From Candidatus Heimdallarchaeum aukensis (GTDB taxonomy: Archaea; Asgardarchaeota; Heimdallarchaeia; Heimdallarchaeales; Heimdallarchaeaceae): a stretch of DNA of 64,000 nt. The number at the start of each line of letters is the position of its first letter. The first letter of the stretch is position 1. The notes beneath the pieces were generated by a model, which was not told where the DNA came from, ran no database searches, and saw only the letters and a program-made list of their open reading frames with translations. Shown piece by piece: positions 41,200 through 61,552 of the stretch. The position numbers were made by a program, and so were the translations under genes. The DNA lies in contig CP084166.1 in assembly GCA_021513695.1 (NCBI GenBank), positions 128,001 to 192,000 on the forward strand. The letters are read 5' to 3'.

Positions 41200-41208
41200 A
41201 GTAATTAC

Positions 41209-42174: not shown

Positions 42175-42301
42175 TAGATTTACTTATTTTTCTTTATTTT
42201 TAGACTTTATCTTTATTGAAATTTTTTTTGATTAAATTTACTATAAAATTAACAAAGGAAAACAATAGATTAAAATATTTAAAAAATTAAAATATACTGA
42301 T

Positions 42302-43417
42302 ATGGTTAGTATTAAAAAAGTTCTCAAGCAACTAGAAGATTCTGATCCTATAGTTCGAAGAGATGCAATACTTACTCTTGGAGAACTAAAAGACGAAAAA
42401 GGGGTTGATCCTTTAATTAAGTGTGTTCAACAAGAAATAAAAGAAAATAGAATCACCGCTATTGTTGCACTTTCAGATATTGGAGATCATAGGGCTATTG
42501 AAATATTAATCTACTGTTTAATGGATGATGATGAAGAAATAAGACTTGCTGCTGCTCGAGCTTTAGGACGATTTACTTCTCCTCAAGCTATCACTACTTT
42601 ACTTGTTTCATTAAAAAAAGACCCAAGTGTGAGAGTTAAGAGTCGTGCAGCTCTATCTTTAGGGAGTATTGGTTCAGAACTGCCTGTTGAAGAATTACTT
42701 AAAGAATCTAAATTAGAACACCCAACCACTCTTCTTTATTCTATAAATTCTGCTTTGACAATGATAGCAAAGAAAAATGGTTATAGTTCAGTAGATGAAC
42801 TTGTTCAAAAAATAAGGGCTAAAAAGGCAGAAGTAGATGAGAAAACACCAGAGCATAAACAAATTCAGGAGAAAGAAGAGCTCGAATCTTTTCCTCGTTT
42901 ATATGACTACATTAGAAAATATGTAGCTCGAGAACTAGAAGGGGTACAAACAGTATTAAGTATTAACTCAGATGAAAAGACTGCATCAAAGAAAATAGCT
43001 GATATTTTAGCAGAAAAATTCTGGAAATTTGCTGAATGGATCGGAAAAAGAATGGGACATAAATTAACTGAATATCAATCTGATTTGCTCTGGCAGATGA
43101 TATGGGATACATCAAGGCCAATTAGAAATGAAATTTACCAAATGATAAGAGATCATCGCTCAGAATTAGAGGAATTAAATCGATTCCAGAAATGGCTCAA
43201 CAAAATAGAAGAACAAAAAGAAGAAGAAATCGTTAAAGATATTGAAAGAAGCAGACCTAAACCCATTATTCAAACTTCAAATAATGTGAAAAAAGACGAA
43301 GCAGAGACAATTAGAGCTGCAGATTTGGCAAGAAGTATTTCTTCAAATCTTGAAGAAATAATGGGCAAATATTCTAGTTGGAAAACAAGAGAGTTAAAAG
43401 ATGAAGAAGATTATTAA
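42302..43417 (+). CDS. HEAT-repeat (PBS-lyase type) protein with C-terminal charged coiled-coil region, copy A
   Basis: LEDSDPIVRRDAILTLGELKDEKGVDPLI, IGDHRAIEILIYCLMDDDEEIRLAAARALGRF, KKDPSVRVKSRAALSLGSIG. Confidence 0.7.
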   Translation: MVSIKKVLKQLEDSDPIVRRDAILTLGELKDEKGVDPLIKCVQQEIKENRITAIVALSDIGDHRAIEILIYCLMDDDEEIRLAAARALGRFTSPQAITTLLVSLKKDPSVRVKSRAALSLGSIGSELPVEELLKESKLEHPTTLLYSINSALTMIAKKNGYSSVDELVQKIRAKKAEVDEKTPEHKQIQEKEELESFPRLYDYIRKYVARELEGVQTVLSINSDEKTASKKIADILAEKFWKFAEWIGKRMGHKLTEYQSDLLWQMIWDTSRPIRNEIYQMIRDHRSELEELNRFQKWLNKIEEQKEEEIVKDIERSRPKPIIQTSNNVKKDEAETIRAADLARSISSNLEEIMGKYSSWKTRELKDEEDY

Positions 43418-43542
43418 GCTTCTTTAAAATTCTGAAAATTGCCAAAAAAATTTTTCTAAAACAATTTTTTATTATTTATTAATTTTCGTAATACCTTGCT
43501 AATACTAAATCCTTCACGACAAAAACATATTTATTTCTGTTT

Positions 43543-43565
43543 ACAATTGTGATATAGTAGATATC
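43543..43565. promoter_or_regulatory. Palindromic elements directly upstream of the RHH gene (candidate operator); duplicated at 46891-46913
   Basis: ACAATTGT (43543-43550, a perfect palindrome) is followed by GATAT-AGTAG-ATATC (43551-43565, 5-bp inverted arms). They end 4 nt before the ATG at 43570. RHH regulators typically bind repeats in their own promoters. Confidence 0.3.
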
Positions 43566-43569
43566 TAAG

Positions 43570-43779
43570 ATGGAATATGGGGTTAATATGAAAAAAAAGC
43601 TGATTACATTTAAAGTAACAGAAGCTATGATGAAATGGATAGCAGAAATGATGGAAAAGGGGAATTATAAAAATAGAACAGAATTAATTGTAGATGCTCT
43701 TAGAGAGTTTCTCATCCAAGAAAGAATGGTTGAAGATCAGGAAGAACTAGAAGCAATTTTTGAAAGAATTGATGAATAG
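43570..43779 (+). CDS. Ribbon-helix-helix (CopG/Arc-like) DNA-binding protein, copy A
   Basis: KKLITFKVTEAMMKWIAEMMEKGNYKNRTELIVDALREFLIQE follows the beta-alpha-alpha RHH pattern (compare ...ggysnRSElireAlreyL). The likely true start is the second ATG (MKKKL) at 43588. Confidence 0.7.
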   Translation: MEYGVNMKKKLITFKVTEAMMKWIAEMMEKGNYKNRTELIVDALREFLIQERMVEDQEELEAIFERIDE

Positions 43780-43821
43780 TTCTCTTATAACTCCTTCTGT
43801 ATTTCTGTTATTTTAGCCCTA

Positions 43822-44629
43822 TTATTCAAACCAATACATAGATGTTTTTTCGAAACATTCTTTTGTTAAATTTTGTGAAAGCTTAAAATAATTAGTAACT
43901 TTTTTATCTATCCTTTTTCTGAAAATCACTGCTTGATTAAAATCTCTATCTGATTTTATCCAGTTTTTTGTAATTTCTTTCATTGTTACCCAGATATCAG
44001 AGGAAGGAAAAGGGATTGGTATCTCTCTAAAAAGGTTTGAAGTTATGTCTCTTACAATAAAACTTTCTACTATAAATTGAACAAATGAGGAGGAAAGATA
44101 ACCAAACAACCCATAAAGGTCTATTTGTTCATCAGGAATTATGATGTCAAAAATGTCGTTTACGTAATAGCCTTCTAGGTCCAAACCAATAAAATACTTC
44201 TTTCCTCTATTTCTACGGACTATTTTTGGTTTTTCAAATATTTGATGATCTCCTGGTGCTCCTAATACTTTTCTGTCATAAATTATTTTTTCTTTTCCTG
44301 GAAAAACTTCAAAGTTTATGACACCTTCTTTGTAATTATTTGAAAAGATATTGTGTCTTACTATTTCTACAGATTTAATTTCATTTGAATATTTCTTTTT
44401 TTTAATATACTTCTCTTTGTATCTCTTTGTTATCGTTAATCCTCGTCTAATAAAAGAATGTTCTTTTAATTTAGGGTAATTATTCAGGATAGTGCTGATT
44501 TCCTTTTGACTTTCAGAACTAAAATTTGAAAAAAGAAAAAGAGGAGGGAAAATGAAGCTATAGTCTATTTTGTGTTCATGATTATCTTTTCTTTTATGAA
44601 ATTTAATGTAATTACTTTCGTTTTTTAAA
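43822..44629 (-). pseudogene. 3' fragment (~268 codons) of the N6-adenine DNA methyltransferase gene, truncated at the duplication junction
   Basis: Identical to 47170-47977. It lacks the start codon, the SAM-binding motif and NPPW. Track ORF 43822-44184 (identical to the last 120 residues of the 663-aa protein except Leu544 read as Met from the TTG start) is only its tail. Confidence 0.8.
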
Positions 44630-45524
44630 AATCGATGATTTTTAATTCTGTATTTTCTATAATCTTCTTTGAAAATTCTAGTATTTTTGGGTACCTTGGC
44701 ATTATTTCATAAGGTAACCTTTTTCTTGCGTCTCCAACACTCATAAAACCTTTTACTTCTAGAAAATGAGCTTCTGATCTTAAAAATAATTCAGCAAAAG
44801 CTTCTGGTTCGACTAAATTGTAGTTTTCATCTACTAAAGTTAATCTTATAACTTTTCTAGTGTTAAGCGAAGGAAGTAATTCAATTGTTTCCATCACTTT
44901 GTTCCATAGATTTGAAAAAGAAGGACGAGCAGTTTTTTTGAAACTTTCTTCAGTAGGGGCAATTAGAGTAACATAGAGTTGAGTAGGAAGAGGGTCAAGT
45001 TTCTTCAACATTTCAGGATTAGTGCCATTAGTTACTAGAAAAGTAGTCATATCACGATTGTGGAACTCTTGAATTAATTCTGGTAACAAAGGATAGAAAG
45101 TTGGTTCTCCACTTAAAGAAATTGCAGCATGTTTTGGATTGTAAGCTTCTTCATATAATCTTGGTTCTACTTTTGGATGATTTTTGAATCCTGCAATTAG
45201 TCTTCTTTGATGTTCTATCATTTGATCAATAATATATTCCGGTTTGTCAACTTTTCCTCTCATTAATTCTTTGTTGTACCATGATGCACTTCTCCAGCAA
45301 AAAACACATTTTAGATTACACCATATTGTTGCAGGAGTACATTGAAGACAACGGTGAGAAGCTATTCCGTAAAATTGTTGTTTATAGCAAAAACCTTCTC
45401 CTTTTAACGCGTGCTTTAACCAGGTGCAAATTTTTACTGCAGAGTGATTACCAGCTATTCTGTACTGTTGTTTTTCTAGTTTGTCTTTCAATTTTGGAGG
45501 AATAATGTTTGTATTTAAACTCAT
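44625..45524 (-). CDS. taw1: Taw1 duplicate, C-terminally truncated at the duplication junction (last 23 residues replaced by Phe-stop)
   Basis: The first 298 residues are identical to 41209-42174. The frame then crosses the junction at 44629|44630 and terminates. It is unknown whether the product is functional. Confidence 0.6.
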   Translation of the reverse strand: MSLNTNIIPPKLKDKLEKQQYRIAGNHSAVKICTWLKHALKGEGFCYKQQFYGIASHRCLQCTPATIWCNLKCVFCWRSASWYNKELMRGKVDKPEYIIDQMIEHQRRLIAGFKNHPKVEPRLYEEAYNPKHAAISLSGEPTFYPLLPELIQEFHNRDMTTFLVTNGTNPEMLKKLDPLPTQLYVTLIAPTEESFKKTARPSFSNLWNKVMETIELLPSLNTRKVIRLTLVDENYNLVEPEAFAELFLRSEAHFLEVKGFMSVGDARKRLPYEIMPRYPKILEFSKKIIENTELKIIDF

Positions 45525-45649
45525 TAGATTTACTTATTTTCTTTATTTTTAGACTTTATCTTTATTGAAATTTTTTTGATTAAATTTACTATAAAATTAA
45601 CAAAGGAAAACAATAGATTAAAATATTTAAAAAATTAAAATATACTGAT

Positions 45650-46765
45650 ATGGTTAGTATTAAAAAAGTTCTCAAGCAACTAGAAGATTCTGATCCTATA
45701 GTTCGAAGAGATGCAATACTTACTCTTGGAGAACTAAAAGACGAAAAAGGGGTTGATCCTTTAATTAAGTGTGTTCAACAAGAAATAAAAGAAAATAGAA
45801 TCACCGCTATTGTTGCACTTTCAGATATTGGAGATCATAGGGCTATTGAAATATTAATCTACTGTTTAATGGATGATGATGAAGAAATAAGACTTGCTGC
45901 TGCTCGAGCTTTAGGACGATTTACTTCTCCTCAAGCTATCACTACTTTACTTGTTTCATTAAAAAAAGACCCAAGTGTGAGAGTTAAGAGTCGTGCAGCT
46001 CTATCTTTAGGGAGTATTGGTTCAGAACTGCCTGTTGAAGAATTACTTAAAGAATCTAAATTAGAACACCCAACCACTCTTCTTTATTCTATAAATTCTG
46101 CTTTGACAATGATAGCAAAGAAAAATGGTTATAGTTCAGTAGATGAACTTGTTCAAAAAATAAGGGCTAAAAAGGCAGAAGTAGATGAGAAAACACCAGA
46201 GCATAAACAAATTCAGGAGAAAGAAGAGCTCGAATCTTTTCCTCGTTTATATGACTACATTAGAAAATATGTAGCTCGAGAACTAGAAGGGGTACAAACA
46301 GTATTAAGTATTAACTCAGATGAAAAGACTGCATCAAAGAAAATAGCTGATATTTTAGCAGAAAAATTCTGGAAATTTGCTGAATGGATCGGAAAAAGAA
46401 TGGGACATAAATTAACTGAATATCAATCTGATTTGCTCTGGCAGATGATATGGGATACATCAAGGCCAATTAGAAATGAAATTTACCAAATGATAAGAGA
46501 TCATCGCTCAGAATTAGAGGAATTAAATCGATTCCAGAAATGGCTCAACAAAATAGAAGAACAAAAAGAAGAAGAAATCGTTAAAGATATTGAAAGAAGC
46601 AGACCTAAACCCATTATTCAAACTTCAAATAATGTGAAAAAAGACGAAGCAGAGACAATTAGAGCTGCAGATTTGGCAAGAAGTATTTCTTCAAATCTTG
46701 AAGAAATAATGGGCAAATATTCTAGTTGGAAAACAAGAGAGTTAAAAGATGAAGAAGATTATTAA
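45650..46765 (+). CDS. HEAT-repeat protein, copy B (identical translation to 42302-43417)
   Basis: The 371-aa translation is identical to copy A. Confidence 0.7.
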   Translation: MVSIKKVLKQLEDSDPIVRRDAILTLGELKDEKGVDPLIKCVQQEIKENRITAIVALSDIGDHRAIEILIYCLMDDDEEIRLAAARALGRFTSPQAITTLLVSLKKDPSVRVKSRAALSLGSIGSELPVEELLKESKLEHPTTLLYSINSALTMIAKKNGYSSVDELVQKIRAKKAEVDEKTPEHKQIQEKEELESFPRLYDYIRKYVARELEGVQTVLSINSDEKTASKKIADILAEKFWKFAEWIGKRMGHKLTEYQSDLLWQMIWDTSRPIRNEIYQMIRDHRSELEELNRFQKWLNKIEEQKEEEIVKDIERSRPKPIIQTSNNVKKDEAETIRAADLARSISSNLEEIMGKYSSWKTRELKDEEDY

Positions 46766-46917
46766 GCTTCTTTAAAATTCTGAAAATTGCCAAAAAAATT
46801 TTTCTAAAACAATTTTTTATTATTTATTAATTTTCGTAATACCTTGCTAATACTAAATCCTTCACGACAAAAACATATTTATTTCTGTTTACAATTGTGA
46901 TATAGTAGATATCTAAG

Positions 46918-47127
46918 ATGGAATATGGGGTTAATATGAAAAAAAAGCTGATTACATTTAAAGTAACAGAAGCTATGATGAAATGGATAGCAGAAATGAT
47001 GGAAAAGGGGAATTATAAAAATAGAACAGAATTAATTGTAGATGCTCTTAGAGAGTTTCTCATCCAAGAAAGAATGGTTGAAGATCAGGAAGAACTAGAA
47101 GCAATTTTTGAAAGAATTGATGAATAG
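46918..47127 (+). CDS. Ribbon-helix-helix DNA-binding protein, copy B
   Basis: The 69-aa translation is identical to copy A. Confidence 0.7.
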   Translation: MEYGVNMKKKLITFKVTEAMMKWIAEMMEKGNYKNRTELIVDALREFLIQERMVEDQEELEAIFERIDE

Positions 47128-47169
47128 TTCTCTTATAACTCCTTCTGTATTTCTGTTATTTTAGCCCTA

Positions 47170-49161
47170 TTATTCAAACCAATACATAGATGTTTTTTCG
47201 AAACATTCTTTTGTTAAATTTTGTGAAAGCTTAAAATAATTAGTAACTTTTTTATCTATCCTTTTTCTGAAAATCACTGCTTGATTAAAATCTCTATCTG
47301 ATTTTATCCAGTTTTTTGTAATTTCTTTCATTGTTACCCAGATATCAGAGGAAGGAAAAGGGATTGGTATCTCTCTAAAAAGGTTTGAAGTTATGTCTCT
47401 TACAATAAAACTTTCTACTATAAATTGAACAAATGAGGAGGAAAGATAACCAAACAACCCATAAAGGTCTATTTGTTCATCAGGAATTATGATGTCAAAA
47501 ATGTCGTTTACGTAATAGCCTTCTAGGTCCAAACCAATAAAATACTTCTTTCCTCTATTTCTACGGACTATTTTTGGTTTTTCAAATATTTGATGATCTC
47601 CTGGTGCTCCTAATACTTTTCTGTCATAAATTATTTTTTCTTTTCCTGGAAAAACTTCAAAGTTTATGACACCTTCTTTGTAATTATTTGAAAAGATATT
47701 GTGTCTTACTATTTCTACAGATTTAATTTCATTTGAATATTTCTTTTTTTTAATATACTTCTCTTTGTATCTCTTTGTTATCGTTAATCCTCGTCTAATA
47801 AAAGAATGTTCTTTTAATTTAGGGTAATTATTCAGGATAGTGCTGATTTCCTTTTGACTTTCAGAACTAAAATTTGAAAAAAGAAAAAGAGGAGGGAAAA
47901 TGAAGCTATAGTCTATTTTGTGTTCATGATTATCTTTTCTTTTATGAAATTTAATGTAATTACTTTCGTTTTTTAAATCCATTGATAACAAAAAGAATTC
48001 ATTGGAAACGTCTTTAAAGGAATAATCTAAATCTGTGTAAATTTCTACATCATATCTATTATCTTTGAGGTGTTTTCTCCATTTCTTGCCATAAGTATCA
48101 GTTATGATACCTGAAGGTAATATTAATCCTACTTTCTCTTTGGATAAACTTTCTGCAATGATCAAAAAAGGTAGAGCAAAATTATATTTTCCAAAGATTC
48201 TATTTTTATAAGGTTCTCTCTTTAAGAATTCTTTATATCTATTATTTATTTTTTTATATTCTATCCACGGTGGATTTCCAATAACAAAATCAAAAAATTT
48301 TTTCTGAAGACTTAAACTTTCATCAAAAAATATTTCAGGCAAATCAACAAAAAAGCTAAATTTGGATAGAGAAGGATATTTCTTCGATATTTCATCTCTT
48401 TTTGTTAAACATTCTTTTATATCTTGAAAAGAAATTTCTTTTTTACCAAATATCACTTCTCTTCTTTTTTCACGAAGTATCGCTAAAAGTTTCAAAAAAG
48501 TTGTATTTTTTCTTTCTGACATTTGCTTTATTATTCTTTCATCATAACCAAGAATGCTATCTCCGTATTTTGAGATTAAAGGAAGTAATTTTCTTTTTCT
48601 ATTATCTTGTAACATGAAAAAGAGTTTGAAAACTTGAAATTCATAAATAAATGGATCAACTTCAACTGAATATGGCATAATCTCTTGTTTTTCAAAAGCT
48701 GGGTAGAGAAAATCTCCTATTCCTGAAGAAATATCGATAACTGTTTTAGTTTTTTTAGAATTGTTACTCAAAATATCTAATAAATCATATACCTTTTTAA
48801 CAAGAATCCTATTAGTAAAATATTGACCTGTTAATCTCGTTTTATCTTGAATAAGTGATAAAATATTAACTTCATTTATTGTCTTGATTATATTTTTGAT
48901 TTGTTCAAAAACCCAAACTGGTAACTTTTTTTCTAGAACTCTGAGTTTTTCTAACGATAGAAGTATTTGCTTATCATCTTGATTTAGATTAACCAGATTT
49001 ATTAACGAAGTTTTTTGTTGATTTTGTTCAGATGAAAAGGATGAAGAATTGTAAATAAAGTAAAACTTTACTATCATCGATTTTAATTCATTAACTGAAA
49101 CTTTGTACCTACTAGCCTTTTTCTGAATTCTACTATGTAGATTTTCCTCTTTTATTTCCAT
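47170..49161 (-). CDS. N6-adenine DNA methyltransferase (gamma-class, Eco57I/TaqI-like) with C-terminal target-recognition region
   Basis: Motif order X-I-IV: GQYFTNRILVKKVYDLL, VIDISSGIGDFLY (SAM-binding), FDFVIGNPPWIEYKK (NPPW catalytic). I could not see a PD-(D/E)xK nuclease motif. Confidence 0.85.
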   Translation of the reverse strand: MEIKEENLHSRIQKKASRYKVSVNELKSMIVKFYFIYNSSSFSSEQNQQKTSLINLVNLNQDDKQILLSLEKLRVLEKKLPVWVFEQIKNIIKTINEVNILSLIQDKTRLTGQYFTNRILVKKVYDLLDILSNNSKKTKTVIDISSGIGDFLYPAFEKQEIMPYSVEVDPFIYEFQVFKLFFMLQDNRKRKLLPLISKYGDSILGYDERIIKQMSERKNTTFLKLLAILREKRREVIFGKKEISFQDIKECLTKRDEISKKYPSLSKFSFFVDLPEIFFDESLSLQKKFFDFVIGNPPWIEYKKINNRYKEFLKREPYKNRIFGKYNFALPFLIIAESLSKEKVGLILPSGIITDTYGKKWRKHLKDNRYDVEIYTDLDYSFKDVSNEFFLLSMDLKNESNYIKFHKRKDNHEHKIDYSFIFPPLFLFSNFSSESQKEISTILNNYPKLKEHSFIRRGLTITKRYKEKYIKKKKYSNEIKSVEIVRHNIFSNNYKEGVINFEVFPGKEKIIYDRKVLGAPGDHQIFEKPKIVRRNRGKKYFIGLDLEGYYVNDIFDIIIPDEQIDLYGLFGYLSSSFVQFIVESFIVRDITSNLFREIPIPFPSSDIWVTMKEITKNWIKSDRDFNQAVIFRKRIDKKVTNYFKLSQNLTKECFEKTSMYWFE

Positions 49162-51389: not shown

Positions 51390-53474
51390 ATGTCAGTAGT
51401 ATACAGTTTCCCTAGGGAATATAGTCATTATATCCCTCTTTTCACTAGAGAAGAACAAGATTTGATTAACAACTTTTCATCAAAAGTTAATAAAGATACT
51501 TCAATGGGAATCTTGAAAGATATCCTTTTAGATATTTTAGATAATCTTTCTTCCCCTTCTCTCTATTTCTTATACTCACTAGGTAAAGTTTTATTCATTT
51601 CTAGTAATTATAATCTACTTGAAGAACTCAATAAGAAATATAAAAGTGAGAGTTTAGAGCTGTGGTGGGGAAATGCTCTAATAAGGCGAACTGAGAATGA
51701 TAAAGTAATTAATCTCGCTTTGAAAATACTCAACAAGAATCCTGAAGAAAAAATAATTAGATTACATTGTTATGCCCTTTTAGCTAATGCATATGCAAAT
51801 ATGGAAAGTGAAAATCAATATAGACATTATATGCAAGAACTCTATCATGAGTCAATTATCTTTCATAGAGATTTAGATAAAGAAAAAATTGTAATAAATG
51901 ATATCCTTCTTTTTGCACATGCTATTGACATTTGGAAAGAGAGAATATCTGCACCTCTTTTAAAACTTGAAAACAAAATTGATGTAGCTTTTCAAATTGC
52001 AAAAGAACTAGGAGATCGTTATCACCTTGGAAGGTTGTACAACATAAGAGGAGTAATTTACAGATATGTAGGAAGAATCTCTGATTCATTTGAATTTATA
52101 AATAAGGCTATAAATTATTATAAAGCAGTTGGAGCTAGGAGAGGAGTAGCAGCAGCAAAAGCAAATCTTGCAACAATTTATACAATTAAAAATGAACTAG
52201 ATAAAGCCGAGAAATTACTAAAAGAGTCTCTCTCAATTTTTTTGGAAGTAGGTGATTACAAAAATCAATCCTTAATTCACTCTTCTTTAGGTGAAATTGC
52301 TATTGCTAAAGGAGATTATCACTCTGCTTTAGAATTGTATGAAGAATCTGTAAGTATATTGGAGCAAATAAACGCACACGAACTACAAGTTTATTGCTCT
52401 TTAGGCGAATTATATTATTTCTTAGGAAATAAAGAAAAAATGAAAATAATAATGAAATTCCTGCAAGAGACAGACAAAAAGAAAGAAGGATTCGTCTATG
52501 GATATTATAATTTGTTTAAAGCTCTTTTAGAAATTGATAACATGAATTATGGTAAAGCAAATGAATACTTGGAAAAAGCTTTGTCTATAAGTGATACAAG
52601 AGGAACAGGATTTTTCTCTGCAAAAATACTTCTTCAACTGTCATTGATCAACATAAAGCAATATGATTCTTTTCAAGAAAAGGAGTATTTAGAAAAAGCA
52701 AAACAGTACATAAATGATTTAGAACCATTTTATGAAGAGTTGAATAAAACAATTGAACATGTAATAATTCTATTGGTTCTTTCAAAAATATATGCAGTAA
52801 TGGAAGAATATACGAAGTCTTTTAACATTTTACAAAAAGCAAAAGATCGTCTTAATTTGTCAAAGAAAGAAAGAAAAAAGGATAAATATTACCACTTAAT
52901 AGAAAATAGAATTAAAGAACTTGAAGAAATCTTTTCAAAAGCCAAAACCGAAACATCATTCCAAAATGAAACTTTTCAATATGAAATTAAAGAAATGGAA
53001 AGTATAAGCATTAGACAAATATCAGAATATGAAAAAGAATTAAGAACTTCAATATTGGCACTTTTAATAGTACATCCTTCAGGAATACCTTTAATGAATT
53101 ATACGCTCAAGAGGTCTAGTCAATTTAGAGATGAACTAATGTTTGGAGGTTTTATTGTAGCTGTAAAAGACATGATAGAAGAGTTATTCTCTAATCCAAT
53201 GCAGAGTAAAGTAATGGTCATTAGCTATGGTAATAATAAGATAATAATGGAGCACAGTCCAAAGAGAAATTTTAGTGTAATTATTTTATCATCAAAGGAT
53301 AGTTTTATTCTACGAAGAAAAATTCATCGATTAACTCAAAATCTACAAGATATAGAGCTCCCGCAACAGTATATTGGAGAATTGACCCCTAAAACAGCTT
53401 CAAGAATAAATGAAGAAGTAAAAAATGTTTTTGGAGAAAACTTAATGCTATATGAAGGTGCTGTTCATATTTAG
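51390..53474 (+). CDS. TPR-repeat protein with C-terminal roadblock/longin-like domain (paralogue 2)
   Basis: Clear TPRs: LGRLYNIRGVIYRYVGRISDSFEFINKAINYYKAVG, AAAKANLATIYTIKNELDKAEKLLKESLSIF, SSLGEIAIAKGDYHSALELYEESVSI. C-terminus: ILALLIVHPSGIPLMNYTL...DELMFGGFIVAVKDMIEELF...NKIIMEHSPKRNFSVIILSSKDSFILRRKIHRL. It is collinear with 49244-51307. Confidence 0.7.
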   Translation: MSVVYSFPREYSHYIPLFTREEQDLINNFSSKVNKDTSMGILKDILLDILDNLSSPSLYFLYSLGKVLFISSNYNLLEELNKKYKSESLELWWGNALIRRTENDKVINLALKILNKNPEEKIIRLHCYALLANAYANMESENQYRHYMQELYHESIIFHRDLDKEKIVINDILLFAHAIDIWKERISAPLLKLENKIDVAFQIAKELGDRYHLGRLYNIRGVIYRYVGRISDSFEFINKAINYYKAVGARRGVAAAKANLATIYTIKNELDKAEKLLKESLSIFLEVGDYKNQSLIHSSLGEIAIAKGDYHSALELYEESVSILEQINAHELQVYCSLGELYYFLGNKEKMKIIMKFLQETDKKKEGFVYGYYNLFKALLEIDNMNYGKANEYLEKALSISDTRGTGFFSAKILLQLSLINIKQYDSFQEKEYLEKAKQYINDLEPFYEELNKTIEHVIILLVLSKIYAVMEEYTKSFNILQKAKDRLNLSKKERKKDKYYHLIENRIKELEEIFSKAKTETSFQNETFQYEIKEMESISIRQISEYEKELRTSILALLIVHPSGIPLMNYTLKRSSQFRDELMFGGFIVAVKDMIEELFSNPMQSKVMVISYGNNKIIMEHSPKRNFSVIILSSKDSFILRRKIHRLTQNLQDIELPQQYIGELTPKTASRINEEVKNVFGENLMLYEGAVHI

Positions 53475-53613
53475 AAATCAAATTACAATGAATAAATCTT
53501 AATAGTGAAGTTTCTAACAGGGTAAAGAAAATACTTTTTTTGATAAAGTAAATTGAAGTGAAATTTATTTTTTCCTAGAAAAATTAAAAAACAAGCAAAA
53601 ATCAAAGCATTAT

Positions 53614-54720
53614 ATGAGTAAATTATTTACTCCCTTTAAAATAGGAAAAATTGAACTAAAAAATAGATTGATAAGATCAGCAACTACCTCATATTGGTCA
53701 ACGAATGATGGATTACTTACAGAACCTATCTTTGATTATTACGAGAAACTTGCTAAAGGGGGAGTAGGTCTTATTATAAAAGGTCATTCGTATATAAATG
53801 ATAAAGCAAGAGCACATCAAAGACAATCAGGATTATGCAACAAAGAACATGTAAAAAAAATGAAAGAATTAACGGAAATTGTTCATAAATATGAAACTCC
53901 TATTATTGCTCAATTAAACCATGGGGGATATTATTGTAGAGATGACAGAATTAGTGCTTCCAAGTACCGTTCTAAAAAATGGCAATCTAGACAAGCATCT
54001 ATTGAAGAAATAAAAAAAATAATTAATGATTTTGCTAATTCAGCTGAACTTGCTATAGAAGCAGGGTTTGATGGAGTACAGATTCATGCAGCACATGGTT
54101 ATCTTATAAGTCAATTTTTATCTGATATTGTTAATAAGAGAAAAGATGAATATGGAGGGTCTTTAGAAAATAGAGCTCGTCTGCTTTTAGATGTTTATTC
54201 TGCAATCAGAGACAGAATCGGAAAAAGAGAAGTAGTAGGAGTAAAAATCAACTGTGATGATTTCGCTAATGAAGGTGGATTTACAATAGAGCAATCTATA
54301 CAAGTAATGAAATGGTTATCAAAAAATTCCATTGACTTTATTGAAATATCTGGAGGAGGTCCTGAACAAAATAGAGAAATTAGAAAAAAGAGAGCTAGAT
54401 ACATAGATTCAAGTAATGGAAAGTCTCCTTTAGAACAACCAACATTTGGTGGATATGCAATTAAAATAAAAAAAGAGATTAAAAACACTCCTCTCTCTTT
54501 AGTTGATGGAATACGAACAAAAGAAACAATGGATGCTTTGCTCGATAATAATATTGTTGACTTGGTTTCGATGAGTAAGCCATTTATTATTGAACCTGAT
54601 TTTCCAGCAAAAATGAAAAACGGACAAAGTCGTTCAGCTTGTATTGACTGTTTAAGATGCTTACAGCCTAACAATTTTGGTAAAAAAATGTTAAGATGTT
54701 TCTATCTAAACGAGATCTAA
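53614..54720 (+). CDS. NADH:flavin oxidoreductase (Old Yellow Enzyme family)
   Basis: LFTPFKIGKIELKNRLIRSATT..., GFDGVQIHAAHGYLISQFLS..NKRKDEYGGSLENRARLLLDV. Confidence 0.9.
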   Translation: MSKLFTPFKIGKIELKNRLIRSATTSYWSTNDGLLTEPIFDYYEKLAKGGVGLIIKGHSYINDKARAHQRQSGLCNKEHVKKMKELTEIVHKYETPIIAQLNHGGYYCRDDRISASKYRSKKWQSRQASIEEIKKIINDFANSAELAIEAGFDGVQIHAAHGYLISQFLSDIVNKRKDEYGGSLENRARLLLDVYSAIRDRIGKREVVGVKINCDDFANEGGFTIEQSIQVMKWLSKNSIDFIEISGGGPEQNREIRKKRARYIDSSNGKSPLEQPTFGGYAIKIKKEIKNTPLSLVDGIRTKETMDALLDNNIVDLVSMSKPFIIEPDFPAKMKNGQSRSACIDCLRCLQPNNFGKKMLRCFYLNEI

Positions 54721-54797
54721 AAAGAAAATTTTCTTTTTTATCTCTAATCACTAAACTAAAAGATTTAATATTTATTTTTATGTTATTGTTCTGAACA

Positions 54798-55625
54798 ATG
54801 ACATCTAATTTTGAGTATTTTAAAATATTAAAGCCTGTCTTAGTCACTGGAGGAATGATATTAAACCTCATGAGAGGAAAAGTAACTAATCAACCAAAAG
54901 AAAGTGATCTCCCTCCAGAATTGGTTAAAGAAAGCTCTACTGCTCACACAGAAATTGACGACTTTGTACAAGATATAGCCCTCGAAATTCTCCATTCTTC
55001 TTTACCAGATATTGGAATAAATGCAGAAGAAGTTACAGATAGAGTAAAATGGTTTAAACAAGACAAAACAGGACTCTGTTTTCATCTAGATCCCTTAGAT
55101 GGGACGCTGGCATATACAAAAAATAGAGAAGATTTTGCTATTGGTGCAGCTTTATCTGACAAATTAAAATTTATAGCCAGTGGGATATACTTTCCTGCAG
55201 TTGATAGACTTTTTTACGCAGAAAAAGGAAAAGGTGTTCTAGTTATTAATAGTTTAGGAGAAAAGATTTCATTCACTAGACCTTCCTCACCAGAAAAAAA
55301 ATATGCGCAAAAAAGATGTGATGAGTATGTTCCCATTCTAGAAAAATTAGCTTTTACAAAGCTAGATTCAATGAGTGCTCATCATAGTATGATTTCTATC
55401 CTAGAAGGAAAAGCTGCAATTCAGATGTATCATATGGCAAGCCCTCATGATTTTGGAATTCCTCAACTAATTCTTGAAGAAGCAGGAGGAATATGTACTG
55501 ATCTTGAAGGGAAACCAATAAAATATGACCCAGACTTTAATAGAGTGCCCTACTTCCTCGCTTTCTTTGATACTAAAATCAAGGACTTATTTTTCAAAGA
55601 AATAGAGAGAAGTAAAACATTGTAG
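54798..55625 (+). CDS. Inositol monophosphatase / CysQ superfamily phosphatase
   Basis: Metal-binding motif FHLDPLDGTLAY (the DPxDGT motif), and the C-terminal motif region SPHDFGIPQLILEEAGG (corresponding to WD.AAG..I..EAGG). Confidence 0.7.
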   Translation: MTSNFEYFKILKPVLVTGGMILNLMRGKVTNQPKESDLPPELVKESSTAHTEIDDFVQDIALEILHSSLPDIGINAEEVTDRVKWFKQDKTGLCFHLDPLDGTLAYTKNREDFAIGAALSDKLKFIASGIYFPAVDRLFYAEKGKGVLVINSLGEKISFTRPSSPEKKYAQKRCDEYVPILEKLAFTKLDSMSAHHSMISILEGKAAIQMYHMASPHDFGIPQLILEEAGGICTDLEGKPIKYDPDFNRVPYFLAFFDTKIKDLFFKEIERSKTL

Positions 55626-55652
55626 ATGACTTATTTTTTTACGTAAGTTTGT
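55626..55652. repeat. Left inverted repeat / junction of the TnpB element (contains TTACGTAA at 55639-55646)
   Basis: See the mobile_element entry. The 16-nt core ttttttacgtaagttt is a perfect reverse complement of 57466-57481. Confidence 0.75.
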
Positions 55653-55809
55653 AAAAATTGAGGGAGAATTGAATGTAAAAAAAGAAAAAGGAAAGGAGGA
55701 AGGGAGTGGAAAGGAAAATGATGGCTTTTTATAGGGAAAAAAAGTATAAGTAAGTAAGAAGAGAAGAAGAAAACCAAAGAAAGAGAAAATAGAAGGAGAA
55801 AAGAAAGAG

Positions 55810-57255
55810 ATGGAGGCCGTCGTCAAAACCTTGAAAGTGAGAATAAAGAATGAGGTATTGACGACAAGGAAGAAGGAAAGGTTAAGGAGAATAACAGGAA
55901 GAGATACGAGAATAATAGAAAAGTATGTGAGAATAATACACCAAAATAGAAAAAAAATATGTATAAGAACTAAAAAAGGGAAAATAAGAGTACATAGAGG
56001 AAAATTAGACGATTTAACATTAACTACTTCAAGAGTAAAAGAAGAAGAGAGGAGAAAGACTTTTCCTCACGACCTTAAGAAAATGTTCCCCTATTGTTCT
56101 CACAATGAGTTTCAAGAGTGTAGAGATATAGCTGTACAACTATATAAACAATGGTATAGACCTAACACCACTCGTCCTCCAATAAAGAGAGCGAGAAGAC
56201 AACTAATTAATGGAAAGAGGTTCATCCTCATCCATCTACCAAAAGAAAAGAATAACACTCTCACTCGTTGGTGGGTAGGAATAAGAGACTCGTTAGACAC
56301 TTGGAAAAGAAATACCCCCTATCATCAGAAGTTGTGGTTACCTTTAGAGATGAGCGATTTCCACCAGAAAGAGTTAAAAAAAGGACAGATAAAAGGTCTA
56401 GAACTGCGATACAAACGTTCTACAAGTGAGTGGTGGGTATATTTTCAACTAAAAGTTCTTCCTCCTTCTTCTTTTCTAAGCGATAATTCCTCTTCTTCTC
56501 TTCCTCCAGCTGTGCTGGGAATAGATCTGGGGATAAACATTCCTGCTGCAGGAGTGTTACTAACCCCTAAAAAGAAGTTAACTATTAAACAGATAAAATT
56601 CTAGTATACCAAACAGTGGAATATAATCAATCATAGATATAAACTCAAACTTTCCCGTCTTCAGAGGAAAGCGGCTTTAAACGACCAGTCGGGTAAAAAA
56701 CACCAAGTTTATCGTTTTCTTGGTCTTCTTCGTCGGAGATATAGAAACGTTAAACTGGCGTATATCCACCAATTTGTAAACGATGTTGTGCGGACAATAG
56801 AGACTTATGCACAAGTGTATGACCTTTTCGTCGTCGTAGGTTATCCTAAACATATCCGTGAAGAGAAAGGAAAAGGGAAAGTTTCTCGTCAATTTCGCAG
56901 AAAACTTCATCAGTGGAACTATGCTCTTGTTCTTGGTCTTCTCCGTCGGGCATTAATATTAAGAGGTTTCGAATCTCACCGTATTCTCACTTTAGACGAA
57001 AGAGGAACATCCTCTCACTGTTCTCGTTGTGGAACGAAAGTCTCTCGCCCTGTCAGAGGGTTAATCTCTTGTTCTTCTTGTAATTACACTTTCCACTCTG
57101 ACCTCACAGGAGCAATGAATATCGCTCGAAGGTTCCTTGGTCATCTTTTCCGTCCTCGTGCAACAACTATTACTGACCACCTTACTGGCTATAAATTCAG
57201 TCTCACCCATTTCACTGTTTGCCAAGGGCTCAGCCATTGGTTGCAGTCCCAGTAG
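55810..57255 (+). pseudogene. tnpB: TnpB-like (IS605 OrfB / RNA-guided nuclease family) gene interrupted by one in-frame TAG
   Basis: Track ORFs 55810-56604 and 56788-57255 are in the same frame. Codons 56605-56787 are also open and read YTKQWNIINHRYKLKLSRLQRKAALNDQSGKKHQVYRFLGLLRRRYRNVKLAYIHQFVND... RuvC-I is GIDLGINIPAAG. The zinc finger is CSRCGTKVSRPVRGLISCSSCNY. RuvC-III is FHSDLTGAMNIARRF. The single stop is TAG at 56602-56604. Confidence 0.8.
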
Positions 57256-57463
57256 ACAAAAAAAGAAACTAATTACTCTTATCTTTGAGGATAGTTATCT
57301 TTTTTTGTCTCTCGTGGAGCGAAGAAAAAGTTCCTTTCTTCTTTATGATTCCCACGATTCGTGTATGATGTCTGTCTCAACCCCTTCTTTCATTGTATGC
57401 TCTGGTTGAGTTCGCAAGAGATCAAACTCTCTTCTAGTTTTTTCTCTTGAAAGACTGAGTGCG

Positions 57464-57490
57464 AAAAACTTACGTAAAAAAGTAAATCAT
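57464..57490. repeat. Right inverted repeat / junction of the TnpB element (contains TTACGTAA at 57470-57477)
   Basis: Reverse complement of 55626-55652 at 24 of 27 positions. Confidence 0.75.
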
Positions 57491-57527
57491 GAAAAAGAGT
57501 TAAAATCTTCTTTGTTTTTTTTTTGAT

Positions 57528-58550
57528 ATGAAATGGATTTATAAATTTCTAATTAGATTTCTTATTTTTACTCTTCTTTTCGGAATATTTATTGCGATTT
57601 CTGTAAAATTTGCATATGTTGAGCCATCAGAATACATATATTCAGATAATGATTGGGATAATTTCTCTTATACTCCAGAATATAATCATTCTCAGTGGAA
57701 TGTTTTGCTTGATGCTCATTCTCACACTTATTATTCGGATGGTTATCTTTCTCCTAGACAGAATATCCTTTGGCATATCGCTATGGGCTTTAATGCTATG
57801 GTTCTTACTGATCATAATACGTTTGATGGTGTTGAAGAGATATTAAAATTAGCAAGAGAAGAGTTTAATGACTCCATTAAAGTTTTTAGAGGTATGGAAT
57901 GGACTACTGATAGAAGTCATCTAAATATTATTCTTCCTCCTGATGTTACTCCTGAAGATTATGAAAAACTGAAAACACATAAGAGTTATTCTTACACTCC
58001 TACAGATGAAGAATTTAAGAGTATAATTGAAGAAACACATTCTATTGGAGGGTTGGTGATTGTTAACCATATTCCTTGGTCAGAAGAGTTTTGTCACGAT
58101 CAGCCAACAAGAGAGCAATTTCTTGAGTGGGGTGTAGATTATATAGAAATAATTAATGAAGAAACTTATGACAAAGTTTCTGAAGATTTTTGCATAGAAA
58201 ATAATCTGGGAATAATTACAGGAACAGATATGCACAAACCAGAACCAGTTTATGCATGGACAACACTAAATGTTTCTGAATTTTCAGAGGAAACAATCTT
58301 TAATGAACTAAAAGCAAAAAGAACAGGATACATTTTTACTGGAGCAGCTTCTCCTTATCCTATTGAACACAGACATAACCCTGCTTATTCTATTTTTTAT
58401 CCTTTTATCAAAATGGGCGAAGTATTCAGAGATGTTTATTCAAGTCCATATTTTGCAGAATACTTGACTCCCATATTTCTCTATCCTTACTTAATCTTCT
58501 TTTCTGTAGAACTAACCAAATTTGTGATTTATAAAAAGAGAAAGAAATAA
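57528..58550 (+). CDS. Membrane-anchored PHP-domain metal-dependent phosphoesterase
   Basis: An N-terminal TM helix is followed by LLDAHSHTYYSDGYLSP...MVLTDHNTFDG...VIVNHIPW...TGTDMH, the PHP His/Asp motif series. There is a C-terminal TM helix. Confidence 0.75.
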   Translation: MKWIYKFLIRFLIFTLLFGIFIAISVKFAYVEPSEYIYSDNDWDNFSYTPEYNHSQWNVLLDAHSHTYYSDGYLSPRQNILWHIAMGFNAMVLTDHNTFDGVEEILKLAREEFNDSIKVFRGMEWTTDRSHLNIILPPDVTPEDYEKLKTHKSYSYTPTDEEFKSIIEETHSIGGLVIVNHIPWSEEFCHDQPTREQFLEWGVDYIEIINEETYDKVSEDFCIENNLGIITGTDMHKPEPVYAWTTLNVSEFSEETIFNELKAKRTGYIFTGAASPYPIEHRHNPAYSIFYPFIKMGEVFRDVYSSPYFAEYLTPIFLYPYLIFFSVELTKFVIYKKRKK

Positions 58551-58583
58551 TTCTCTTTTTTCTTTTTTACAACTTAATAGCTG

Positions 58584-59663
58584 TTAGATTGGTCTGTTAT
58601 ATTTCCATCTTTCGATTGTTTCTTTCCAGTTTTCATAGATTTCTTTTTCAACTTCTGGTTCAATTTTGTAATTATCTGGTTTATATTCACGGAGAGTATC
58701 TAAATATGATTGAATATCGGGTTTAACCTTATTAAAATCTCCTAATTGGAGCTGAGAGTAGATTTTTTCTAGATTTTCTATAGGATTTTGACAAAATTCT
58801 TCATATTTAATTTCAATAATGTTTTCTTTGGGAATGGATTCAAGGTCATTGTAGAATTTCTTATACATCTCTTTATACATCTCGAAAATAAACTCTTTAA
58901 TTTCAAAATTAGGTTTTTGCAAATAGAATAGCTTTGTGTTTGTATTGTATAATTTTACTGTTGAAAAGAATACTTTGTAAGGGTCTCTATAAATGTGAAT
59001 GAATTTTGCGTTAGGATACAAATCAAGAATAAGTTTTACTCTAAACGTATCCAAAGGATTTTTGAGCAATAGTTGTTTTCCCTTTCCTCTAATTGTGAGT
59101 TTGTTAATTAAGTATCTGAAAGATTCTTTCCACTTTCTTAATTCTTTTTCAGTTGCATCATCAAAGGAGCAATATTTCAAATATTTTTCTTTATTTCTAG
59201 GGAAGAAAAGAGCTGTAAGGGGAGAAAGTAAGCAATAATTAGTTAACGCAAACTCGTGCTCTTGAGGAGTTTTTGCATTCATTTTCATATTATCCATTGG
59301 ACGTTTCTTTGGAATAAGAGGTGACATTATTGTTTTTGTAAACCAATAACTTGTAAGAAATTGATGAGGGAAGGTTGCTTCAACCATGTTAAGATAATAA
59401 TATCTCTTATCATGTAACATTAGTTCTTGTAGGTAAGTTGTTCCTCCTCTCCAATGTCCAATAATAAATATAGGGTCTTTCTCTAACTTAAGTTTCTTTA
59501 TTCTTTTATTCCATATTAATTGTTCAAATATTACAAAAGGAGAAAAAAGAATTGTTACCAATGTTATTGCAAATACCTTTGGCCAATATTTGATGTGAAT
59601 CCTGAATTTGTTTTCCCATAGTAGTTTTATCCATTTAATAAAACTTGCACCCATAAGAAACAT
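58584..59663 (-). CDS. Sulfotransferase family protein
   Basis: 5'-PSB-like loop PIFIIGHWRGGTTYLQELM and 3'-PB-like FIHIYRDPYKVFFS. There is an N-terminal TM/anchor helix. Confidence 0.8.
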   Translation of the reverse strand: MFLMGASFIKWIKLLWENKFRIHIKYWPKVFAITLVTILFSPFVIFEQLIWNKRIKKLKLEKDPIFIIGHWRGGTTYLQELMLHDKRYYYLNMVEATFPHQFLTSYWFTKTIMSPLIPKKRPMDNMKMNAKTPQEHEFALTNYCLLSPLTALFFPRNKEKYLKYCSFDDATEKELRKWKESFRYLINKLTIRGKGKQLLLKNPLDTFRVKLILDLYPNAKFIHIYRDPYKVFFSTVKLYNTNTKLFYLQKPNFEIKEFIFEMYKEMYKKFYNDLESIPKENIIEIKYEEFCQNPIENLEKIYSQLQLGDFNKVKPDIQSYLDTLREYKPDNYKIEPEVEKEIYENWKETIERWKYNRPI

Positions 59664-59780
59664 TGGTACATCAACAGATTGAACAGAAAGAATAGTAGTT
59701 ATAAAAATTTGCTTGAAACGAGAGAAATATTACAGTACATTTAAAAAAAAACTTCTTTATCTTGAAATAATTTGAAAAAT

Positions 59781-60707
59781 ATGCTACATTATCTGAAAGT
59801 TGGAACAATAGTCTTTGGTTGGGCTCTTGCTCCTGTTATTGGAGAGTTTATAATTGATCAAACTAAACAATTTTCTCCTTTTCAACTCTCTTTCCTAAGA
59901 TATTCTTTAGCTGCTATCACTTTAATGATAATTTTTCTCTTTCAAAATCGGGAAAAAAGGCCCTCAAAACAAGAGATGGTAAAAACATTGAAAGATAAAT
60001 GGTTTTTTCTTCTTGTTACTAGTATTTTTGTCTCACTTATGCCAATTTGTCTTTTTTTTGCTGTTAAAAAAACAACTGCTTCTTCTGCATCATTCTTGTT
60101 GAACATAAATGTAGCTTTTATCCCTCTAATTGCATTTTTTCTAGTTAAGGAGAAAATAAAAAAGTTTCAAGCAATAGGTGTTTCTGTTACAATAATAGGC
60201 AGTTTTCTAGTTATTTTTGACAAAAAGATAAAATCACTAGATTTTTCTCTTTCTTCTTTTACTTCTTCTACTGTTGTTGGAAATTTACTCGCACTAGCTT
60301 CAGGTTTAAGCTGGGCGATATATACAGTTTTGCTTAAAAAATTCTATACTGAAGAGGATCCACTATTTATTACTTTTCTAAACTTGTTATTAAGCAGTAT
60401 CTTCTTGTTTCCCATTGCATTCTTTATCTTTCCTTTTTCGATTTCTGTTACCTATTTAGGGATAGTTTTAGTAATATCTCTTGCAATAGTATCAACAGCT
60501 TTAGCTTACACTTTTTGGTTAGATATACTTGCTTATATGAGTACAACAGAAGTAGGAGTTATTCAAGTATTAATTCCTGTGATTTCTGCATTGTTAGCAG
60601 TGTTCTTCCTTGGAGAAACAATTACATTTGTTTTTGCTATTGGTGCTTTTTTAATAATAGTTGGTTTGTTTCTAGTTGAAAAAGAGACTGAGCTAGTTGA
60701 AGAATGA
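59781..60707 (+). CDS. EamA/DMT-superfamily transporter
   Basis: Ten hydrophobic helices in a 5+5 arrangement, with typical EamA segments (ALASGLSWAIYTVLLKKF, FFLGETITFVFAIGAFLIIVGLFLV). The track start at 59772 is TTG; the ATG is at 59781. Confidence 0.8.
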   Translation: MLHYLKVGTIVFGWALAPVIGEFIIDQTKQFSPFQLSFLRYSLAAITLMIIFLFQNREKRPSKQEMVKTLKDKWFFLLVTSIFVSLMPICLFFAVKKTTASSASFLLNINVAFIPLIAFFLVKEKIKKFQAIGVSVTIIGSFLVIFDKKIKSLDFSLSSFTSSTVVGNLLALASGLSWAIYTVLLKKFYTEEDPLFITFLNLLLSSIFLFPIAFFIFPFSISVTYLGIVLVISLAIVSTALAYTFWLDILAYMSTTEVGVIQVLIPVISALLAVFFLGETITFVFAIGAFLIIVGLFLVEKETELVEE

Positions 60708-60763
60708 ATAAATAAATTAGGAAATCAGAAAAATTTATCTGTTCAAAGAAAAACTATTATGTA

Positions 60764-61552
60764 GTGATAAAGTTGAAAATGATAAATGAAGATATTTGTA
60801 TAAGCAAAGATGAGTTTTTGATTGTTCAGGAAAAAGACATCGAATTTAAGAACCCCATAGTTTTCCTTACATATCCTACTTCAGGGGTTATAGGACCTAT
60901 TATTTCAAATCAGATGATCTCTTCTTTAAAATTAAAAGAAATAGGTTTTTTCAAATCTAAGTTCCTCTCTCCAGTTGTTATCTTTACTGACAACGTACTT
61001 AAACATCCTTACCTAATTTATTCAAATCATGATGGGTCAATTGTGTTAATTTCGATTAATTATCCAGTTCCTCAGAGTTCTTACCTTGCTGTTGCCGAAG
61101 GATTGATTAATTGGGTTGATAGAGAACTAAATGCTAAATATATTGTATGTTTAGATGCTATTCCTGTTCAAGTACGACCCGAGAAAAAAATAGTTATTAC
61201 GGCTGCAGAAAAAGAAATTGCAGATGAAATGAAGAAATATGCAGTCGAATTATATGAAGATGGGGTTGTTTTGGGCTTATCAGGAGCAGTGATGAGTGAA
61301 GCATTACTAAGACAAATTGTAGGAATAGCTTTGCTAACTCCAGCTACAGTTAACTTTCCTGACCCAGAAGCAGCTCTACATTTAGTTGAGGTGATAAATG
61401 ACTTTTTTAAGCTAGGTATAGACATCCAACCTTTAATACAAGAATCTGAAAATATTAAGAAACAACTATCCTTAATGTCTCAAAAACAACAACAAATTGA
61501 AAAAGAAAAAATTCTTCCTCCCAGATCTTCTTTGAGAGAAAGCTTCGTCTAA
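60764..61552 (+). CDS. PAC2-family proteasome assembly chaperone homologue
   Basis: NPIVFLTYPTSGVIGPIISNQMISSLKLKEIGFFKS.FLSPVVIF resembles the PAC2 N-terminal signature (glpGvG.vg..a...Li..l....ig.i.s...pp). The length is ~260 aa. The track start is GTG; an ATG lies at 60779. Confidence 0.6.
   Translation: MIKLKMINEDICISKDEFLIVQEKDIEFKNPIVFLTYPTSGVIGPIISNQMISSLKLKEIGFFKSKFLSPVVIFTDNVLKHPYLIYSNHDGSIVLISINYPVPQSSYLAVAEGLINWVDRELNAKYIVCLDAIPVQVRPEKKIVITAAEKEIADEMKKYAVELYEDGVVLGLSGAVMSEALLRQIVGIALLTPATVNFPDPEAALHLVEVINDFFKLGIDIQPLIQESENIKKQLSLMSQKQQQIEKEKILPPRSSLRESFV

Follow-up and report, generated by a model that had tools for sequence, protein, structure and literature searches.

A stretch of 64,000 nucleotides (nt) from the genome of Candidatus Heimdallarchaeum aukensis (contig CP084166.1, positions 128,001 to 192,000; here referred to as the window) contains an element of 1,865 bp at 55626-57490, which carries a tnpB gene and a guide-RNA region between inverted ends. 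This element is very probably a non-autonomous DNA transposon that belongs to a multi-copy family of Ca. Heimdallarchaeum and related Heimdallarchaeaceae. Inverted repeats of 25 bp enclose a promoter-like box, tnpB, and the region of a structured 3' RNA, which is predicted to extend across the right repeat into flanking DNA; the element is inserted at the AT of a C-AT-G target, with AT at both junctions. Movement would be brought about by an enzyme that is supplied in trans and recognises the repeats. In intact copies, the right-end RNA, of which the last 16-20 nt would come from the flank, may direct cutting of the vacated site, and this cutting would, by analogy with TnpB and Fanzor systems, favour retention of the element. 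An original prediction, made from the letters of the window, had placed the block between the stop codon of an IMPase-like gene and a PHP gene, with which the gene annotation agrees, and had read it as a mobile TnpB-only element. The multiple copies with common ends described below speak for its mobility, and the protein does belong to the TnpB family, but a nonsense mutation at 56602-56604 and the structured 3' RNA had been overlooked.

Ends and target site of the element

No further copy is present within the window. Elsewhere, copies were found in H. endolithica (L001, L002, L003, L004, L006, and L162), on JGI contigs (L139 and L140), and in metagenomes, where a scan with the repeat pattern gave mostly chance AT-rich matches among those listed, together with at least seven real loci (L043, L073, L075, L080, L094, L131, and L137). 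A scan of viral contigs gave no real matches. The search provided 8 left and 14 right ends from independent sites, the termini of which coincide with the inverted repeats. All 14 right ends are homologous to the window precisely up to the last base of ...AAGTAAATCAT, and the flanks beyond are unrelated; all 8 left ends start with ATG (ATA in L002), followed by a T-run and an (A/G)CG motif. Because homology with all other copies stops at 55626 and 57490, these positions, which had been proposed earlier as ambiguous boundaries, are the true ends, and both arms lie within the element. The last 14 nt of the right end are invariant in all copies, and the outer 9 nt are variable at left ends but invariant at right ends, as expected if the right end is additionally constrained as RNA. 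The idea that these 9 nt derive from the target at left ends was rejected, as a reading by hand found no match between the left-end bases and the right flank.

The inverted ends had first been described as matching at 24 of 27 nt with a perfect 16-nt core, TTTTTTACGTAAGTTT (read by hand). This description holds; the arms measure 25 nt (Table 1), match at 23 of 25 positions (92%), and form the best inverted pair of the region, compared with a best 25-nt inverted match of 21 in 100 dinucleotide-preserving shuffles of 55400-57700 (2.3 kb). The octamer TTACGTAA occurs, as reported before, at 55639-55646 and 57470-57477, i.e., 13 nt inside each end. Among the three readings originally offered for it, that of a part of the terminal inverted repeats is correct: the octamer is one variant of the repeat and part of the repeat itself. 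An 8-bp target duplication is contradicted by its position 13 nt inside the ends and by its replacement in L001 and L002 (left end, TTTTGCGAA; right end, TTCGCAAAA) and at the left end of L139 (TTACTTAA). Strict co-variation of the left and right variants was ruled out by L006, in which the left end is of the TTACGTAA type but the right end of the TTCGCAA type. The relative at L015, which is 43% identical, has unrelated 19-nt inverted repeats of its own at the same positions, and inverted repeats are therefore a family trait. In the window, TTACGTAA occurs five times against 0.59 expected, with two of the other three copies located in an unrelated tandem duplication (~41200-47900).

The AT at both extremities is constant, and direct repeats shared by all copies do not exceed 2 bp. 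An NMT-like GNAT gene is interrupted by the element in L001; its halves of 154 and 221 amino acids (aa) join in frame only when 2 nt (AT) are kept, giving ...FEPEQ-H-GIDTAL...; the motif EPEQHG(I/L)D is conserved in 8 of 8 aligned homologues spanning this junction, and the His codon CAT consists of the flanking C plus AT. In L139, the start codon of an enolase gene (MSKIERII..., typical) consists of the flanking C plus the first AT of the element. From these two reconstructed empty sites it follows that there is one AT in the target and two in the occupied site. The surroundings of this AT are biased, giving C-AT-G as target consensus: C stands before it in 7 of the 8 left flanks, and G comes after it in 9 of the 14 right flanks. 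For the window locus, the empty site is predicted to read ...CATTGTAG-AT-GAAAAAGAG..., i.e., an allele ...AAAACATTGTAGATGAAAAAGAGTTAAAATC...; the empty site proposed originally, ...tttttttacgtaaaaaag..., is contradicted by the two reconstructed sites, which join the outer flanks through a single AT.

The GNAT orthologue of H. aukensis (protein P0166, K9W45_04160), seen without the element in L160 (1729-1928; Logan contig, run SRR15988954) and in the same state in L161, contains a precise inversion of ~190 bp with no bases gained or lost, which splits the gene into open reading frames (ORFs) of 117 and 216 aa. It is delimited by breakpoints in an inverted repeat of 7 nt (ATGTTGT...ACAACAT), the last two bases of which are the AT inserted into in H. 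endolithica, and re-inverting the segment gives back ...EPEQHGID... in frame. The inversion may have been left behind by a recombinase or nuclease that acted at the AT site. Short copies occur as well: L094 (reverse strand, ~232-377) and L075 (2091-2273) hold only the last 145-180 nt, namely, the RNA scaffold and the right repeat, and each begins at or near C-AT-G, with the start of L094 (ATGATTCCC) resembling the left terminus (ATGATTTAC). These may be mini-elements that arose from an internal pseudo-left end, or the outcome of adjacent deletions. L075 carries a second, more diverged right end (2866-2952, minus orientation, ~75% identity), tail to tail with the first across an AT-rich spacer of 595 bp, and thus two elements in opposite orientation lie on one short contig.

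A homology search collected 100 homologues of TnpB, and the N-terminal ORF of 264 aa was found to be 100% identical to K9W45_00690 of Ca. H. aukensis. Full-length relatives with 82-87% identity form clusters of 18 (H. aukensis) and 31 (H. endolithica) member sequences located on chromosomes; remoter relatives (30-50% identity) are found exclusively in Heimdall- and Thorarchaeota. The publication of the source genomes reported 11 transposase/integrase families with up to 27 copies and does not describe the ends of this element (Wu et al. 2022, PMC8813620). The element is also richer in G+C (37.6%; tnpB ORF, 39.1%) than the rest of the window (30.2%), with a sliding-window peak of 44.7% at 56950-57249, and this offset is repeated in all other copies (36-39%, against 29-32% in their flanks). 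It amounts to a moderate 7 to 9 points, so the element is indeed the G+C-richer part, but the "much more" of the original prediction was an overstatement.

The TnpB protein and its putative guide RNA

Comparison with an orthologue from another strain (P0001 on L005) shows that the tnpB copy of the window strain has been inactivated by a TGG-to-TAG mutation, and that the element is fixed at this locus, with the IMPase-like gene on one side and the PHP gene on the other, in two strains or more. The orthologue is 99% identical, has the same IMPase-X-PHP context, and encodes Trp at the TAG codon; the two genes differ at 8 positions in 8 codons, 7 of which are non-synonymous including the TGG-to-TAG change, and the element ends are identical. 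Recoding of TAG, e.g., as pyrrolysine, was rejected, given the TGG of the orthologue and given that TAG ends 9 of the 39 large ORFs of the window and is therefore an ordinary stop here. For annotation, this means that K9W45_00690 and the neighbouring ORF are a single nonsense-mutated tnpB. Over 51810-61255, the window and L005 are collinear for 9.4 kb at 99.0% identity, and the divergence of the element (0.43%) is lower than that of the immediately flanking IMPase (2.4%) and PHP (1.8%) genes, which could be explained by gene conversion among copies or by a recent sweep of the segment. Decay is common in the family: L080 (reverse strand) is dead as well, with TAG as the third tnpB codon (ATGGAGTAG), and in L139 and L140 the gene survives as three separate ORFs of 72, 128, and 352 aa.

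Upstream of the gene lies a strongly purine-rich tract; across 55600-56049, the GC skew reaches +0.70 and the AT skew +0.46 to +0.56. The tract varies in length and sequence from copy to copy, and most of it is missing, together with the TTTTTATAGGGAAA box, from L002 and L080. This box is seen in the window, L004, L006, L001, L139, and L162, as well as in L015, which is only 43% identical, and is a putative archaeal promoter of tnpB of the TATA/BRE (B recognition element) type.

A Pfam search of the tnpB product returned the Cas12f1-like_TNB zinc finger (PF07282, 2.9e-9) as the sole domain; the residues listed as invariant in Table 1 are those of a 23-member family alignment. In a profile alignment with PDB sequences, Gly344 falls under the catalytic Glu of AsCas12f, and Glu397 at the residue three before the conserved TS. 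An AlphaFold2 model (pLDDT 80) places Gly344 in one strand and Glu397 at the end of the next, and Foldseek gave AsCas12f as the best match (4e-14), followed by TnpB 8h1j and Fanzor2 9b0l. The protein is thus predicted to have the RuvC D-E-D triad of TnpB, with the Glu coming from the alternative position E397. It contains the pattern D-{P}-G ... E-x6-CxxC-x13-CxxC-x6-D, which corresponds to the regular expression that defines the "alternative E" (Yoon et al. 2023, PMC10711439), and its Gly plus relocated Glu corresponds to the RuvC-II rearrangement (Altae-Tran et al. 2023, PMC10691335).

This arrangement is shared in part with two known groups. As in the "RIIr" TnpB clades (PMC10691335), Gly occupies the canonical position, an invariant alternative Glu lies just past the next beta strand, and RuvC-III is of the NADxN type in most family members; in the Heimdallarchaeum subfamily, however, it reads HSDLT rather than NADLN. 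As in the Fanzor transposons of eukaryotes and viruses, the alternative Glu lies six residues before the zinc finger (Bao & Jurka 2013, PMC3627910; PMC10711439). RuvC-I reads G-I-D-L-G without the DPG of the Fanzor/pro-Fanzor fingerprint, the alternative Glu being present; D-L-G thus stands here against D-P-G in Fanzor, the host is archaeal, and the best-matching solved structures are Cas12f/TnpB rather than Fanzor1. The Thorarchaeota relatives (P0051-P0096) have a conserved acidic C-terminal extension of ~90 aa, without counterpart in the Heimdall proteins, with the motif ...GESAAVH.QTSLL.F.D...DPAV..TVE.L...QE.E.RSVGG (alignment columns 600-693).

The 235-nt tail of the element, from the stop codon to the right end, is its most conserved non-coding stretch. 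RNAalifold, applied to an alignment of 11 copies, predicted 48 pairs, 9 of them with compensatory changes, in five helices that are either invariant or supported by covariation, followed by an unpaired tail of ~36 nt that holds the right repeat. The alignment cells are paired in 98.2%, compared with 42-58% when the partners are slid, and the covariation score was reached by 0 of 500 shuffles. As the compensatory changes stem from two or three subfamilies, they represent few independent events. The window sequence alone gave a fold z of -2.8, and an Rfam search found no family, apart from a single sub-threshold chance match to a miRNA. A putative structured RNA of the kind expected for TnpB/OMEGA systems, at the 3' end and reaching the right end, is therefore present. 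The right-end element RNAs (reRNAs) of TnpB and Fanzor are known to read through the right end, and those of Fanzor contain the terminal repeat inside the scaffold with the guide beyond it (PMC10711439). The unpaired tail with the right repeat parallels this layout, and by analogy the right flank, at 57491-57510, would be the guide part of the RNA.

Table 1. Features of the element and its neighbouring genes, in coordinates of the window.
Feature	Position	Strand	Remarks
Left terminal inverted repeat, ATGACTTATTTTTTTACGTAAGTTT	55626-55650	+	First two bases AT (55626-55627), the junction dinucleotide
Purine-rich leader, GGAGGAAGGGAG...	55651-55724	+	Variable length; between left repeat and promoter-like box
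TTTTTATAGGGAAA box	55725-55738	+	~75-85 nt upstream of tnpB ATG
tnpB pseudogene, 481 codons	55810-57255	+	One frame, single internal TAG
Asp239, catalytic (GIDLG, RuvC-I)	56524-56526	+	Invariant
In-frame TAG (Trp265, TGG to TAG)	56602-56604	+	Splits gene into 264-aa and 155-aa ORFs
Gly344 (VVVGYP)	56839-56841	+	At canonical RuvC-II Glu position
Glu397, alternative Glu	56998-57000	+	Six residues before zinc finger; invariant
CxxC...CxxC zinc finger, C404/C407/C421/C424	Between Glu397 and Asp431		Invariant; zinc finger as in TNB
Asp431	57100-57102	+	Invariant
Putative omega/reRNA scaffold	57256-57490	+	235 nt, stop codon to right end
Right terminal inverted repeat, AAACTTACGTAAAAAAGTAAATCAT	57466-57490	+	Last two bases AT (57489-57490), the junction dinucleotide
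Putative guide segment, GAAAAAGAGTTAAAATCTTC	57491-57510	+	Right flank, upstream region of PHP gene
Inositol_P-family gene (IMPase-like)	54798-55625		TAG stop at 55623-55625; adjoins left end of element
PHP-domain gene	57528-58550		Right neighbour of element

Mobilisation and comparison with known systems

No transposase gene was found within or beside any copy or distant relative at the loci examined, the complete chromosomes not having been scanned; as no copy encodes a transposase, mobilisation would have to take place in trans. The earlier statement that no tnpA is present holds for the element and its surroundings. That the end architecture is unusual for a TnpB carrier, as had also been proposed, is true in comparison with IS200/IS605 and IS607, but publications already describe TnpB elements and Fanzor elements that have inverted terminal repeats, as well as solo TnpB copies moved in trans (PMC10691335, PMC10711439). 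The ends exclude IS200/IS605 and do not agree with the definition of IS607, and therefore a recombinase acting at AT and a DDE transposase with AT duplication remain as candidates.

The first candidate, tentatively placed ahead of the others, is a conservative site-specific recombinase of the IS607-like serine type that crosses over at AT. The ends of a circular form, ...AAGTAAATC-AT-GAyTTAyTT..., would then be a dyad-symmetric crossover site with the two repeats as half-sites, and integration into x-AT-y would leave AT on both sides without a true duplication. This is in line with the invariant AT at both junctions and the single AT in the reconstructed empty sites, and the abutted ends would form a perfect dyad around AT. 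IS607 integrates by crossover between matching dinucleotides of ends and target, and its members (e.g., ISXfa1) likewise have the same dinucleotide at both ends and once in the empty site, as well as an reRNA through the right end; among alternative-Glu TnpBs, moreover, the closest relatives of Fanzor co-occur with IS607 TnpAs (PMC10711439). In the H. aukensis GNAT site, the base-perfect inversion ends on the same AT, although it is equally explicable by microhomology-mediated repair. On the other hand, the shared dinucleotide is AT here and GG in IS607, and the IS607 family is defined as having no terminal inverted repeats (PMC6188088), which are present here. IS607 encodes a serine-recombinase TnpA, whereas no such gene was seen near any copy at the loci inspected, a copy elsewhere in the genome not having been searched for. 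A palindromic core would also give no control of orientation, though a transposon needs none.

The second candidate, a DDE transposase acting in trans, is possible but somewhat less probable; it would bind the 25-bp repeats and make a 2-bp staggered cut at AT, resulting in a fixed AT duplication. DDE elements are characterised by terminal inverted repeats, and the step from one AT in the empty site to two after insertion amounts, in formal terms, to a duplication of 2 bp. However, the duplication of IS630/Tc1-mariner elements is fixed as TA, whereas AT is found at the junctions of the present family, the host of which is an Asgard archaeon, and we know of no prokaryotic family with an obligate AT duplication. 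In a published census, all six DDE-associated TnpB groups had inverted terminal repeats, which are likewise symmetric in the IS630-linked "DDE-6" branch; the 3' end of tnpB lies <250 bp from the right end in these elements, compared with 235 bp here, and solo TnpBs with the ends of transposase-bearing elements are presumed to be mobilised in trans (PMC10691335). No DDE or helix-turn-helix gene was found in or near any copy or relative examined, the complete chromosomes again not having been scanned. The dyad of the abutted ends, the AT that behaves like the GG of IS607, and the inversion in H. aukensis are suggestive, and on these grounds the recombinase is slightly preferred over the DDE transposase.

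A less likely proposal is that the family represents an undescribed transposon type, in which an alternative-Glu TnpB and an inverted-repeat unit are combined with conservative recombination at an AT core. Equally doubtful is its extension, by which a circular intermediate would have the two repeats as its palindromic crossover site and the same enzyme would leave precise inversions and end-truncated mini-copies at C-AT-G pseudo-sites. If true, the archaeal lineage that is closest to eukaryotes would combine IS607-like chemistry with eukaryote-like ends in the style of Fanzor.

Classical IS200/IS605 transposition of the IS1341 type, in which a Y1 HUH TnpA would act on single-stranded DNA at a TTAC target (as in IS608) with the octamer as hairpin, is very improbable: the family resembles the IS1341 group in having tnpB alone with a 3' guide RNA and no long target duplication, and insertion directly 3' of ...CAT without duplication is compatible with the data, but all copies have terminal inverted repeats that mirror each other instead of subterminal hairpins, no hairpin is conserved across subfamilies (the potential is missing in that of L001/L002), no Y1 gene lies near any copy at the loci examined, and there is no TTAC-type flank. 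The TTAC site put forward in the original prediction is internal (13 nt inside the left end) and dispensable, as the left ends of L001, L002, and L080 lack it, and the two empty sites join at the outer AT rather than as TTAC|GTAA.

Several points weigh against the account of a trans-mobilised, RNA-guided transposon given at the outset. No transposase partner was found, and mobility in trans is deduced from copy number and common ends. A true empty site at the window's own locus was not recovered, the closest IMPase relatives being ≤74% identical and not syntenic, and the only contig with the exact protein breaking inside the left repeat. The repeat variants are not strictly paired, as L006 mixes left and right types. 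If AT belongs to the protospacer-adjacent motif, the right junction (TCAT + flank) looks much like the empty site (xCAT + flank), which leaves the avoidance of self-cleavage unexplained. Finally, the RNA-guided nuclease activity of a protein with Gly and an alternative Glu is predicted by analogy.

Implications and a further feature of the window

The architecture is uncommon among prokaryotic TnpB carriers, yet it has been reported before: inverted-repeat TnpB elements, trans-mobilised solo TnpBs, the RuvC-II rearrangement, and reRNAs that contain a repeat are already published. For the heimdallarchaeal family itself, its 25-bp repeats, and its C-AT-G target, no description was found in the literature searched. 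What is gained are exact ends, a C-AT-G target, and a model of the RNA scaffold for a TnpB family that is abundant in two closed Heimdallarchaeum genomes. Fanzor transposons, too, include non-autonomous copies bounded by inverted repeats, with the repeat inside the 3' region of the reRNA (PMC3627910, PMC10711439). Prokaryotic TnpB carriers outside IS200/IS605 and IS607 can thus resemble Fanzor elements, namely in their inverted terminal repeats, alternative catalytic glutamate, and repeat inside the guide RNA. Should the partner prove to be a recombinase that acts at AT, the family would form a bridge between TnpB transposons of the IS607 type and those of the inverted-repeat type. P0001 and other intact members would be candidate RNA-guided nucleases of a compact, archaeal kind.

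Apart from the element, the window contains a tandem segmental duplication at ~41200-47900 with a period of ~3,349 bp, the repeat units being 100% identical wherever they were checked. Two genes are duplicated by it, one of the Tyw1-like radical-SAM type and one with HEAT repeats, and it adjoins an Eco57I-type methylase gene.

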